Origin: Escherichia coli
Lineage (GTDB): Bacteria > Pseudomonadota > Gammaproteobacteria > Enterobacterales > Enterobacteriaceae
Direction: 5' to 3' (one strand)
Length of the DNA stretch: 64,000 nucleotides
Assembly: GCF_011045215.1 (NCBI RefSeq)
Contig: NZ_CP049201.1
Below are positions 1-6,000 of the stretch, one piece after another; the first letter of the stretch is position 1, and each line of letters starts with the position of its first letter. Position numbers: made by a program.

Positions 1-3000
1 ACACGCTGACCGTCTGCCCGGCAAGTGTATTACCGAATGCATCGGTGACCCTCGCCCGCAGCGTGTTCGCCATTGCACCGTCTGCCACTGAGTTATCCCG
101 GGTGACTACCAGATCAGCGATCTTCGCCGTCCTGACATCCGCGACAAATGTCACGTTCTGACTCAGGGTGCTGTTGTTGATGGTTGCAGTGACTGTACTG
201 ATCCCCGCCGTCTGGCTGGTGATACTGATCTCCACCGTGCCGTCCGGCCCTGTGGTGACCGTCGAAGCGACCGTTGCGCCGTTATCCGCCAACACGCTGA
301 CCGTCTGCCCGGCAAGCGCATTACCGAACGCATCGGTGACCCTCGCACGCAGCGTGTTCGCCGTCGAACCGTCCGCCTCTGAACCATCCTTAATGACCAC
401 CAGATCCGCGATCTTCGCCGTCCTGACATCGGCGATAAACGTCACGTTCCGGCTCTGGCTGCTGCTGTTGATGCTGGCGGTGACTGTACTGGTACCCGCC
501 GTCTGGCTGGTGACACTGATCTCCACCGTGCCGTCCGGCTCTGTAATCACCGTCGGGGCAACCGTTGCGTTGTTGTCCGCCAACACGCTGACCGTCTGTC
601 CGGCAAGCGTATTACCGAACGCATCCGTGACCCTCACCCGCAGCGTGTTCGCCGTCGAAACGTCTGCCACTGAGCCGTCCTTAATGACCTCCAGATCAGC
701 GATCTGCGCCGTCCTGATATCGGCGACAAACATCACGCTCTGGCTCAGGCTGCTGTTGTTGATGCTGGCGGTGACCGCACTGACTCCCGCCGTCTGACTG
801 GTGACACTGATCTCCACCGTCCCGTCCGGCTCGGTGATAACCGTCGGAGCGACCGTTGCGCTGTTGCCTGCCAACACGCTGACCGTCTGCCCGTCCAGCG
901 CATTACCGAACGCATCCGTCACCCTCACCCGCAGCGTGTTCGCCGTCGAACCGTCTGCCACTGAACCATCCTTAATGACCACCAGATCAGCGATCTGCGC
1001 CGTGCTGACATCAGCAACAAAGTTCACCGTTTTACTATCGCTGCTTTGATTGACCTTAGCCTCAACAGTGCTGGCATCCGCTACGGTACTGCTCAGATCA
1101 ACCTCTGCCATACCATGCGCATCCGTCCTGATATCTGCGCTCTGCCCCGCATTGGCAAATACAGCCGCTCCCTTCGTCACCGTAAAGGTGACGGTCTGCT
1201 CCGGCAGCACATTGCCAAACTGATCTTCCACCCGGACATTCACCGTATGTCGATCGCTGCCATTCGCCAGCACATCCGGGTTACCCGTTGTCACTTGCAT
1301 CGCGACAATTTGTGCGCTGGCGGCATCGCCACTAATACTGTAATCATTTGAAGTCAGAGCGCTCGCCCAGTCGAACATCTGTAGCTGTGCTTTTAAACCG
1401 GTGCCAGGGAGTAAGGCGGTATACGTTGCGGTATAAATTCCTTTTTGATCTTCATTCCAGGCGATGCTTTCCGCTTTTGTATTTGGCAGCTGAATAGCCT
1501 GGTTGATAGCGTCTCGTTGCCCCCCGACCAGGTTTTCATAGCTATCCTTGAGTGTTACCGTAACTTTTATCACGCCGCCCGCGGTGTAGGTCGTTTTGTC
1601 GGTAACGATGGAGGAATAAGCCAGCACAGCTCCGCTTTCGCGGATGGCATACGCATCGGATTGCTGCGCGCTACTCCATGTCGATAGTTTCAGCGTGGCG
1701 TAATGGCGATCGCCAGCAATCTTCGCGGTTCGGGTGGTGGTGTAAACGCCGTCAGACTCTTCGCTCCAGTTACCCGTTTCATTTTTATCTGTACCGCTCA
1801 CCTCGACCACACCGCTACCCGCCAGCAGCGAAGCCATCCCTTTCACCAGGTTTTTCTGCTCATCCATAAGGGTGACGGACACTTTTATCTTGCCACCCGC
1901 GGTGTATGACACATCGTCCGTCTTGATGGTGGAAGTCAGCTGCGAGATATCGCCAGTGATAAAGCTCACTTCCACAGACTGACTGCTGCCATTGATCTCG
2001 GCCTTGATAAGACTGTTTACCGCCTGGTCACTGGCAAGGTTAACGCTGGCAATCCCGTCTTTATCTGTCGTCACAATACCGCCATTTGGATCGGCAAAAA
2101 CCGCCGCACCATTCACGACCGTGAAGGTAACATTTTGTCCCTGCAGTAAATTTTGATGCACATCCCTGACCGTCACAGCGACGGTATTGTGATCGCGTCT
2201 GGCAACTGCGTTATTCGCGGTGATCTGCATCGCAGCGATTTTGGCGGTATCTTTATCACCCGCAATACTGAACGCATCCGAATGTTTGGTTTGCCAGCCG
2301 GGCATCGTCAGCTGGGCCGTTAATTTGTCGCCAATGAGATGGGCCGTATAGCTTGCTTTGTAAATTCCCTCACTTTCTTCCGTCCAGGCACTAACGGCAT
2401 CAGCCTTCGTGTTGTCTACTTTAACGGTTTGTTTGAGAAGTTCTTTTCGTCCGGTAACCCCGTTGCCGTTATCATCTCTCAGGGTCACTTTAACGACTAT
2501 CGGCTTACCCGCGACGTAATTATCCTGGTCTGTCTCAATCGTGGAGTCAGCGCGGGATGCCGTATTCGCCACGATAGCAATCAGCGCTGGCGTCTTAGCG
2601 ATATCGTCGCCGTTAAATTGCGGCATCAGCGATAACGCGCCAGACGTCTTCCCGGCGGTAACTATTTGGGTATAGGTTCCGTTACCGTTGTCTTTCCATT
2701 CGCTTAAGGCGAAATCCTGCAAACCTTTCGCCTGTGTTTTTAACGTCATACCTGGGATTGGCTTGCCGCTGGAATCTCGCGCGGTATAGGTCAGCATTGA
2801 GGTTGATTTTCCATCAGCAAGCAGGATTTGCAGATCGACAGAAAGCGTTGAATCGGCGAGGCTTAATGTGGGTTTTTCCACGACCACCATACTTTCTTCA
2901 CGCCGGGAGAAATTTCCTTTCGAATCTTCCGCTGTAACCGCTATCGGGTAAGTGTTGTCGGTTTCAGGCATTGCCGTGAATCGGTAGGGAGGAATAGTGA

Positions 3001-6000
3001 CCTGAATATCCTTGCCGGAAACAGCTACTTTTCCGCCCGCTGATTGCAGGGAGGCGGCTTCAATGTCATAACCTTTCAGCGCATATTTGGTTTGTAAGGA
3101 AGAAACCAGCGATTTAACCTCACCCGGCTTGCCTTTCAACGGATCGGTCAGCGTCAGCCGCACCAGCTCTTTCTTGCGATATTCGAGGACAATATTGTTA
3201 TTACGATCGACCAGGTCATAGCGACTGCCCACAAGGCTGCGTCGTGCTGCAACTTCAGCCGGATCGAGCTGTTTTTGCAGTGAATGACCAGGTTGCAACG
3301 TCAACTCCATACCAATTCGGGTGTCGTTTTCTCCCTGTTTGCCCTGCCGTTGCTCGGCACTAAAGGAGATCAGAGGAACAGGGGTGTAACTCAAACCTGC
3401 GGTAATCGCGTGAGGATCATTTTGTCGCTCGTCTTTACCAAACAGCGCCACTTCATCGCCATAATATTGTTCATAGACCAGCTTGCCGCCCAGCTGCGGC
3501 CAGGCCGGTAACCAGCCTTCGGCGCGAAGATCCCACCCGTTCGCCGGACGTGCTTCATAGTCATTGTCGAGTTCCGGTGCACTACGCCAGTTACTGAGGC
3601 GCAGATAACCGTTGCCGCTCAGTTTCAGGTAATCGCGCCAGTATTCAACGCCCATCCCGGTTCGGGTGTGATAGCGGGTCAGGTCATGATCGATAAACAT
3701 ATTGACGCCAGACATCCAGCTCGGGGTGAAATAACGCCAGCCGATACCGTGGTTGGTTTGAGTGCGATCATCCGTACGATGAAGTGTGTGCTGGCTGAAG
3801 ACCAGGTTATCCGGCGTTTCGTACCAGGGATGGAGAAATTCGAATGAAGAGCTTTTAAGGCTGAAATCTTCATCCACACCAAGAGATACCCGGGCAGTTC
3901 CCCAACGACTGAGCCAGTCCGTTGCCTGCGCAGATGCAGAAGAAGCCACCCAGCCACGCGCCATACTCGCCGCCTGTTCGCTGTCCATATCGCGAGCTAA
4001 AAGTGTTCCGCTTTGCTGCGCCACTTCCGCGACCTGCATTTGCGGATCTTTGCCGTCGCGCTCCATCTGCATTGCTTTCAGGTTGCGCGCTTCAGGGCTA
4101 TTACTGTTAATGAGGGGCACATCTATTTCATCGCCCTGACGCACATTGTCAAAGCCCCGCGCAAAGGTACGAAACTGGTTCAGGCGACGTAACTCATCAA
4201 CGGTGATACCAAAGCGTGCCGCGACCGTTGATGGCGATTCCAATGCCCCCAGGGTATATGGAATAGTTTTAACATTCGGCAGGATCAGGGACGTGGCAGT
4301 ATCCGAATGCGCATGGTTAATATGCGTAGGGGCAGCGGCCATAACAGGGAATATAGTCTGTGTTATCAGGCAAATACCGGCGGTCAGACGACGTAAACGA
4401 TCCCCCAATCCACATATGGTGTTATCGCCCCGACGATCGCCATTCCCATGCGCTTTCCCTGCCATTTGTCATCCCTGTCGCTATGCGTTCAGATTAAATG
4501 ACCTTTCTTTAACATGAGGGAAAATGATGATTCATGATTAGCAAATGATGAATTCAGGTGGAAGAATAGAAATAACAACAAGATAAGAACAATACCTGAT
4601 CAAGGGTTATCAGGAGGTAGAACAGGAGAGCTTTCCCGCCAGAGCAGTAACCCCTCCTGTAAATACGTTACTTCATTTTCACCTTTGCGGTGACCAATAA
4701 CGCCGTCAGCAACATCAATGTGCCGGACAACATCAACGGCGAAGTCAGACCAATATTATCCAGCGCATAACCACCGATTGCCGCACCACAGGTATTAGCA
4801 AGCTGAATAACCGCCACCTGAATAGACCCGGCTTTTTCTGCCTGATCGGCCAGCGAGCGGGTGATCCACGTTGACCAGCCGACAGGAACCAATGCAAAAG
4901 TTAGCCCCCAGATAATCGCCACGCAGGTAGCAACGATTTTATCGCTTCCCCACAACGTCAGCACCAACGCACTCACAGCCAGTATTAACGGCGCGCCTGC
5001 TAAGGCCAGTTTTACCGAACGTTTAAGAATGAACGACGAAAGCGACGTACCGATAAAGCTGGCGATACCAAAACTTAACAGCACCAGCGTTAAGCCATCC
5101 ACACCGAATCCCGCCAGGTTCATATACACCGGGCGAATATACGTGAAGAAAGCAAACTGCCCGGCGAAAGACATGAAGATGGCGATCATCCCTGCCATCA
5201 CACCCGGACGTTGTAATAAGCGGAAAGTATTTTGTTTCTGATGCGAGGGTTCGCCTGGCAGCGAAGGCAATGATTTGATAATCCAGAAAATACACAGCAC
5301 GCCCATCACCGCCGCCGCATTAAAGACATTGCGCCAACCGATAAGCTCGCCTAAAAAACTGCCCAACGGTGCGGCAATCACCAGCGCAATAGAAACCGCG
5401 CCGAAGATCACCGACAGCGCCTTCGGCACCGTACGCGGCGGTACCAGACGCATGGTCAGCGACGCCGACATCGCCCAGAACCCGCCCAGCGCCAGCCCCA
5501 GACAGGCACGACCAATTAAAAGCAAACTGAATGAGTTAGCAAAGGAAACCAGCAAACAGGAGAGCGTCAGCAAAACGGCAAACAAAATAACAACGTAGCG
5601 GCGGTCAGTGGCCTGAATTGTCTGGGTAATAAACAAACTGGCAAACATTGCCACAAAGGCGGTCACGGTCACCGATTGCCCGGCAACCCCTTCCGAAATG
5701 CCTAAATCCTGGGCCATTGGCGTCAACAAACTGACGGGCAAAAACTCAACGATAATCAGACAGGCGACGCAAAACGCCACCGAGAAAACGGCTGACCAGT
5801 TCGGTCGGGTGATGGCATCCGCGCCGCGGTTTTCGGCAATAAATTCACTCATGGTGTTACCCGTGGCATGTTTCAGGGGAAAAGCCGACCACTTTAACAT
5901 TGAAATGTGTGACGCATTTAACGTTTTTGCAACTTTTACGGTGTTGTGGGAAAAGTTCGAGGCTGCTCGAAGAAATAAAAATCATAGGGCAAGCTGATAT

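Follow-up and report, generated by a model that had tools for sequence, protein, structure and literature searches.

What is the long open reading frame (ORF) at the left end of a 64-kb stretch of Escherichia coli DNA (64,000 nucleotides of contig NZ_CP049201.1, assembly GCF_011045215.1; the whole stretch is called the window below), next to nepI, and what does its presence say about the strain that carries it? A sequence-only reading of the window had taken it for an adhesin gene of the intimin/invasin family, without recognising it as a named one. According to our analysis, and with a probability of about 95%, positions 1..4465 of the minus strand are the first 1488 codons of air (= eaeX = iatC), the gene of the type Ve giant adhesin of the eip/eilA island. 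The gene is named and has been studied: it is an already known, published and automatically annotated accessory adhesin gene.

Identity of the gene

Translation of this interval in six frames, the check proposed by the sequence-only reading, gave a single stop-free frame on the minus strand, uninterrupted from 4465 to 1 (1488 codons). Each of the other five frames of this interval contains 28-97 stops, with longest open runs of 73-211 codons, and the probability of 1488 open codons as estimated from base composition is about 3e-29. Translation can begin only at the ATG at 4465, the first possible start: an in-frame TGA is found two codons upstream, and AGGGA is placed 7 nt before the ATG. The frame is still open at position 1, where it is cut by the window and not by the genome. 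Judged by complete alleles of 2740-4093 codons, the window covers the N-terminal 36-54% of the gene.

The name of the gene follows from its open frame, from a family model and from its closest relatives. The NCBIfam model NF040978 (IatC N-terminal equivalog domain) matches residues 1-1065 over model positions 1-1065 with 2571.4 bits, against a cut-off of 2400. The protein is closely similar to Air of enteroaggregative E. coli (EAEC) strain 042, and the closest allele found, IatC of OkiPb01695 (3608 aa), is 99.93% identical, one residue being changed in 1488; the 202-bp region upstream of air is also identical to that of OkiPb01695. In relatives, the NCBI Prokaryotic Genome Annotation Pipeline labels the matching gene as 'inverse autotransporter adhesin EaeX/Air' or 'IatC'. 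The proposed membership of the intimin/invasin family of inverse autotransporters is upheld by an IAT_beta match, by alignments of the barrel and by the score of NF040978 above its cut-off. Intimin, SinH, YchO, Ilp, YrIlm and Cronobacter Inv were each rejected as the orthologous group, as all of them fall far under the respective NCBIfam cut-off.

One and the same locus thus goes by two names in the NCBI pipeline, 'air: EaeX/Air' in the relative locus L001 and 'iatC: IatC' in L003 and L004, although the proteins agree in their C-terminal ending and almost completely in their N-termini. The literatures on Air (EAEC) and on IatC (Goh et al. 2019) do not refer to each other: EaeX is never named in PMC6714894, where 'air' occurs only in 'air dried'.

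Domain organisation of the encoded protein

In a hydropathy scan, residues 1-45 consist of a charged N-region of 24 residues, a hydrophobic core at about 25-42 and the sequence AAA at 43-45. They look like an extended Sec-type signal peptide (residues ~1-45; 4331..4465, minus strand) with a putative cleavage site at its end, and residues 1-44 are 100% identical to those of 042 Air.

The putative signal peptide is followed by a periplasmic LysM domain (residues ~66-118; 4112..4270, minus strand), which includes the segment FGITVDELRRLNQF (residues 85-98) previously described as LysM-like. The Pfam LysM model gave no significant match to the window protein (E=0.14), and this value was not accepted as evidence; comparisons at the level of PDB sequences and of folds were therefore made. 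The segment matches the solved LysM domain 4uz2 (E=8e-4). An AlphaFold model of residues 45-190, built with 44 homologues, has a confident beta-alpha-alpha-beta core with a predicted local distance difference test (pLDDT) score of 87-90, and almost all of its Foldseek matches in the PDB are LysM domains (CEBiP, Thermus P60, MltD, Ecp6, chitinase LysM), with template modelling (TM) scores of 0.75-0.81 normalised to the target and at about 2 Å; the periplasmic LysM of intimin, 2mpw, is among them. The designed repeat proteins dTor_12x31L, which head the PDB sequence matches of the segment, were discarded as noise, their scores being sums of many insignificant repeats. The LysM assignment consequently stands on the PDB sequence match, the model and the fold matches, while Pfam alone stays below significance.

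The translocator, an IAT beta-barrel with its linker, occupies residues 149-430 (3176..4021, minus strand). Pfam IAT_beta (PF11924) matches residues 149-423 over positions 3-279 of its 279 with E=2.7e-108, and the crystal structures of the invasin barrel (4e1t, E=5.8e-80) and of the intimin barrel (4e1s, E=4.3e-68) can both be aligned with residues 186-430 over their whole length. The barrel, which is of the 12-stranded IAT_beta type, precedes the passenger and is 99.6% identical to that of 042 Air. The segment RQGKQGENDT, presented earlier as the canonical motif of the beta-domain, does lie inside the barrel (residues 372-381), but it is a semi-conserved segment and is not known as a named motif: it shares 4 of 10 residues with RMGKSSKHET of invasin and 5 of 10 with RHGTGNENDL of intimin.

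The domain search also yielded ten significant Big_1/Invasin_D3 matches past residue 537, spanning residues 537 to 1197. The proximal passenger (residues 431-1148; 1022..3175, minus strand) comprises about six non-identical Ig-like domains of the Invasin_D3/Big_1 type, with Pfam matches at residues 537-633, 639-727, 745-836, 950-1022 and 1056-1150 and a weak Invasin_D3 match at 843-918 (E=0.026). This part is 98.7% identical to 042 Air.

The array of 97-residue units

From residue 1149 to the edge of the window (1..1021, minus strand), the passenger is made of near-identical Big_1 domains of 97 aa (291 bp) in tandem, of which the window holds the first 3.5; these units begin at residues 1149, 1246, 1343 and 1440. 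Tandem Repeats Finder (TRF) reports for this interval a period of 291, 3.5 copies and 87% matches, its G+C content (GC) is about 61%, and the same units in a relative match Big_1 with E of about 1e-19. These are the Big_1 repeats that had been predicted to leave the window. An apparent extra repeat within this region of some relatives (a span of 6290 versus 6000 bases) proved to be an artefact of repeat alignment, as residues 1-1488 align gaplessly.

The complete alleles measure 2740 (XJ34), 3608, 3705, 3802, 3806 (042) and 4093 aa (A30), and the spacing between those of 3608, 3705, 3802 and 4093 aa is an exact multiple of 97 aa (291 bp). Motif counts give 18-20 units in four alleles, TRF gives 19.0 copies in L003, and the lengths correspond to about 9 units in XJ34 and about 23 in A30. 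In the C-terminal 1200 aa of L003, the array is followed by further Ig-like domains and by Invasin_D4 (E=2.6e-12). Depending on the allele, the last 800 aa are 99.9%, 91.5% or ~81% identical to those of the allele nearest to the window.

Goh et al. 2019 (PMC6714894) found no evidence of variation in the number of IatC repeats. The polymorphism of repeat number among long-read genomes is clear, and it is the one mildly new point of this analysis. It allows speculation that the array could be a fast-evolving length dial (9-23 units in seven relatives) that sets the reach of the tip beyond lipopolysaccharide and capsule and is combined with allelic tips possibly differing in receptor; we regard this idea as rather unlikely.

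Locus context and distribution

The gene lies, as had been proposed, downstream of nepI and on the same strand. This conserved flank, coding for a purine ribonucleoside efflux pump, extends over 4668..5852 (minus strand; NCBIfam NF007578, 851 bits against a cut-off of 584) and is separated from the air start at 4465 by an AT-rich intergenic region of 202 bp (4466..4667, minus strand), the presumed site of the air promoter and ribosome-binding site. In four relatives this region shows 95-100% conservation. Behind nepI, at 4595-4614, there is a terminator-like hairpin of a kind that the scan would be expected to return by chance.

In K-12, yicS directly adjoins nepI at a distance of 40 bp, and air is missing. 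Homology between the window and K-12 starts exactly at 4668, the 3' end of nepI, in agreement with the earlier view that K-12 has no such gene at this position. NepI ends in ...KVKMK (394 aa) in the window and in other carriers of the island, versus ...KVKMKKS (396 aa) in K-12; the island junction is located in the last nepI codons (4668-4680) and shortens NepI by two residues.

The accessory status of the gene, also suggested previously, is evident from a count in 5426 complete E. coli genomes: 754 of them, 750 at a coverage of at least 80% (about one strain in seven), have the part of air that codes for the barrel, always as one copy per genome and always on the chromosome. Carriers were isolated from cattle, pigs, poultry, baboons, an otter, a frog, wastewater, river water and humans. 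The nepI-air arrangement is shared by 042 and six more genomes. Seven relatives were inspected, and in each of them eilA follows directly beyond the 3' end of air in convergent orientation; the six loci that reach far enough all carry, further on and up to yicS, genes for chaperone and translocator proteins of a type III secretion system (T3SS) of the SycD, SipB/YopB and SipD families. Together, eilA and the translocator genes next to air are the eip island between yicS and nepI.

Relation to known inverse autotransporters

The closest characterized system is Air/EaeX of EAEC 042 (EC042_RS21320, 3806 aa). Its position on the chromosome is that of the window gene (eilA, air, nepI, the RelE/ParE pair, yicN), and it is 95.3% identical over 1488 residues, without gaps. 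It differs in the 97-aa units, which are just 83.8% identical position by position, and in the C-terminal 800 aa, which share ~81% identity with the allele nearest to that of the window and have ...CVEYY instead of ...CMKTF as their last residues. Air, the enteroaggregative immunoglobulin repeat protein, was described in this strain.

IatC of SMS-3-5 (EcSMS35_4024, 2934 aa; PMC6714894), after which NF040978 is named, belongs to the same orthologous group and has the same plan of signal, LysM, barrel, Big_1 repeats and C-type lectin (PMC6714894), but it is much shorter than the relatives nearest to the window (3608-3802 aa). YeeJ of K-12 has the same architecture. Its N-terminal region of signal and LysM is ~52-55% identical, with a LysM core (NTVPYTLGALES..RFGI.V.ELR.LNQFRTFARGFDNVRQGDE.DVP) almost the same as that of the window protein; the LysM of YeeJ binds peptidoglycan, and YeeJ promotes biofilm (PMC5595812). 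YeeJ is nevertheless a paralogue encoded at another locus, unlinked to eilA/eip, with a different and shorter passenger (2359 aa in SMS-3-5). Among inverse autotransporters, a periplasmic LysM domain is a feature of large members such as intimin, YeeJ, IatC and IatD and is not universal.

Intimin and invasin are likewise of type Ve, with a barrel alignable over its full length and Big_1 rods, and the intimin LysM 2mpw is a fold match; intimin of strain Sakai is 39% identical over residues 144-529 of the window protein. Unlike Air, they have no array of near-identical units, and their passenger is several times shorter. Giant size and near-identical tandem Ig domains are found again in the inverse autotransporter YrIlm of Yersinia ruckeri (PMC6714894). 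YrIlm belongs, however, to another genus, locus and orthologous group, and its model NF040981 aligns with residues 32-500 at 412 bits against a cut-off of 750.

Function and alternative explanations

air is a routine VirulenceFinder marker, and later surveys also include it among their marker genes. Sheikh et al., in 2006, are said to have described an air mutant with reduced aggregation and adherence. The 'Air adhesin' has been used as an EAEC marker in Malian children, where air was found in 33% of cases versus 47.5% of controls (odds ratio 0.6) and was not associated with disease (PMC3256949). EilA modulates the eip genes and eaeX, and a defect in eilA alters epithelial adherence and biofilm formation (PMC4210603). 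IatC of SMS-3-5, predicted to carry a LysM domain and a C-type lectin tip, was surface-exposed by immunofluorescence when expressed in K-12 and promoted biofilm, with neither autoaggregation nor binding to extracellular matrix (ECM) (PMC6714894). The LysM domain of YeeJ, in addition to its binding to peptidoglycan, assists surface localization (PMC5595812). The suggestion that the gene encodes a likely adhesion or colonization factor is in line with these publications on orthologues as adhesion and biofilm factors (PMC6714894, PMC4210603, PMC3256949).

A plausible course of secretion can be transferred from intimin and invasin. By analogy with these proteins and with YeeJ, the product would pass the inner membrane by the Sec route by means of its extended signal peptide, the 12-stranded barrel would be put into the outer membrane by the beta-barrel assembly machinery (BAM), and the LysM domain would be retained in the periplasm, bound to peptidoglycan. 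The C-terminal passenger would then be exported through the barrel as a hairpin and fold into a long Ig-like rod of about six distinct domains followed, as in the relatives sampled, by 9-23 near-identical 97-aa units. Such a rod would hold an invasin-D4/lectin-like tip off the cell surface, and the tip would mediate attachment and biofilm formation. The gene is probably expressed from its own promoter and in dependence on the neighbouring HilA-like activator EilA.

Several points speak against the identification of the locus as the gene of the island's giant adhesin. The stop codon of air, its tip domain and its integrity fall outside the window, and what is said here of the part past position 1 is drawn from relatives. 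The eip island and eilA of this strain also lie outside the window and are expected there from synteny. A scan for a sigma-70 promoter upstream of air found no convincing match on the minus strand. 'Adhesin' is itself a broad label: the IatC of Goh et al. lacks autoaggregation and ECM binding and has no known receptor, and the phenotype of Air is cited second-hand. Lastly, in strain D8 (L009, 2333-13756), air is annotated as two separate ORFs, one of 3021 nt ('beta domain-containing protein') and one of 8337 nt ('Ig-like domain-containing protein'), so that at least one carrier has a disrupted gene.

The split gene of D8 lends some weight to the idea that air is a pseudogene in the present strain too, a frameshift, a stop or an insertion sequence past the window edge leaving no functional adhesin. 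Long near-identical arrays of 291 bp are prone to slippage and assembly error, and neighbours in the island are frameshifted in some relatives, as is the sipB-like gene in OkiPb01695 and XJ34. However, the break of D8 lies in a part of the gene that the window includes and that is open in this allele; six of the seven relatives inspected have a single intact ORF, and the closest one is intact at 3608 aa. A pseudogene is improbable here. Still farther from the evidence is the proposal that the protein is an intimin or invasin proper, binding Tir or beta1-integrin, for attaching-effacing lesions or for invasion. The common family, the 39% identity of the barrel to that of Sakai intimin and its fit to both crystal structures speak for it. 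Yet the NCBIfam model NF033627 (intimin_all) gives 329.5 bits against a cut-off of 1400, outside the barrel the identity is 27-29% and confined to isolated Ig domains, and intimin, with 934 aa in total, has a passenger several times shorter than that of Air. Neither in the window nor in the relatives is there a locus of enterocyte effacement (LEE), tir or cesT beside the gene, and the LEE of Sakai, at selC, is a different island in a strain that has no air. Sequence membership of intimin or invasin proper is already refuted, and we attach practically no credence to this proposal.

A more serious contender concerns the role of Air and not its identity. The protein could serve surface colonization and biofilm formation in the gut or the environment, and not receptor-specific adhesion to host cells; it would then contribute to the fitness of commensal and animal strains and would not be a virulence factor. 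Recombinant IatC gave biofilm and not ECM binding or autoaggregation (PMC6714894), the carriers come from many animals and waters besides humans, and air was no commoner in the Malian cases than in the controls (PMC3256949). On the other hand, air stands in linkage with T3SS translocator genes, and one HilA-like activator regulates both (PMC4210603); receptor-binding relatives typically have an invasin-D4/lectin-like tip (PMC6714894). We consider this role a substantial possibility, of somewhat less than even odds.

Other features of the window

Between nepI and yicN, two ORFs of the plus strand (6080-6439 and 6423-6746) encode, by annotation in relatives, a RelE/ParE-family toxin and a helix-turn-helix (HTH) protein. 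The module is missing from K-12 (K-12 gap 5947-6785). The putative toxin matched no NCBIfam or PADLOC model; the HTH protein gave sub-threshold matches to antitoxin models of the NadS/MqsA type. As the module is present in both 042 and Sakai, it is independent of air.

A sugar-utilization island at ~10,650-17,660, between adeD and uhpT, is missing from K-12, 042 and Sakai. It contains a LacI-family regulator, phosphotransferase system (PTS) components IIB, IIC and IIA, a glycosidase of glycoside hydrolase family 1 (GH1) and a carbohydrate porin. On its two sides are a pseudogene fragment of the YicS family and another DUF1198 (yicN-like) gene, which suggests that the yicS/yicN flanks were duplicated when the island was acquired. 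Compared with L001 and L003, the uhpT-uhpC intergenic region (19,069-19,208) contains an insertion of 118 bp whose ends form imperfect inverted repeats (CTTCAAGCCGCAGG ... CCTGCAACTTGAA). This insertion, located in the uhpT promoter region, is a small palindromic repeat of the dispersed kind: similar copies are present at a median of 3 sites in an E. coli genome, and ~730 genomes contain a match of 99% or more. It matches no Rfam family.

Between uhpA and ilvN, which are spaced by 75 bp in K-12, the window carries a 3.3-kb islet of 32-39% GC (22.8-26.1 kb; 22,800-26,100). An orphan ORF of 435 aa lies in it at 24632-25939 on the minus strand, together with a paralogue of 24% identity that is split here in two (23900-24364 and 22893-23852). 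The islet proteins matched nothing in Pfam, NCBIfam, PADLOC, PHROGs or a profile search of PDB sequences. Their named matches, of 60-98% identity, are almost all 'hypothetical proteins' of E. coli, with one from another Escherichia isolate, and the family accounts for just 47 clusters among 1.84 billion representatives. The islet occurs in 1109 of the 5426 genomes, mostly at 80-95% DNA identity, and Sakai carries it as four fragments, ECs_4607-4610.

The structural model of the 435-aa protein is of low confidence (pLDDT 57), and its top 21 Foldseek matches in the PDB are all EspG, with E down to 1e-4 and a TM score of only ~0.2. A profile-profile alignment of the orphan family with the EspG family is weak (probability 19%, E=0.0012). 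The catalytic residues of EspG, Arg-208 and Gln-293 (PMC4017587), align in it with R226 and Q328, which are invariant in the whole orphan family. The islet may encode a divergent pair of EspG/VirA-like effectors (Rab GTPase-activating proteins of the TBC-like type), a lead and not a result.

Matches at the Rfam gathering threshold correspond to istR (28506-28635), ROSE_2 (43315-43387), ES036 (48768-48810) and AsdA (54287-54367). They are ordinary RNAs of the core genome, ROSE_2 being the thermometer found upstream of ibpA in 042 and AsdA being antisense to dnaA mRNA. The window has no tRNA genes, and the rest of it is the conserved uhp-ilvBN-emrD-yid-dgo-gyrB-recF-dnaN-dnaA region.

Significance

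The value of this gene as a discovery is small, since it codes for a named, published adhesin that is a routine marker in virulence typing. Given the findings of Goh et al. 2019, a systematic length polymorphism in long-read genomes would be a modest new point. Short windows and short-read contigs usually break within the 291-bp array, and long reads are consequently required to establish the length and integrity of the gene. For the biology of the strain, air marks an eip/eilA-type island at the yicS-nepI junction, so that a HilA-like regulator and SPI-1-like translocator genes (similar to those of Salmonella pathogenicity island 1) are probably present; this is relevant to the assignment of the pathotype.

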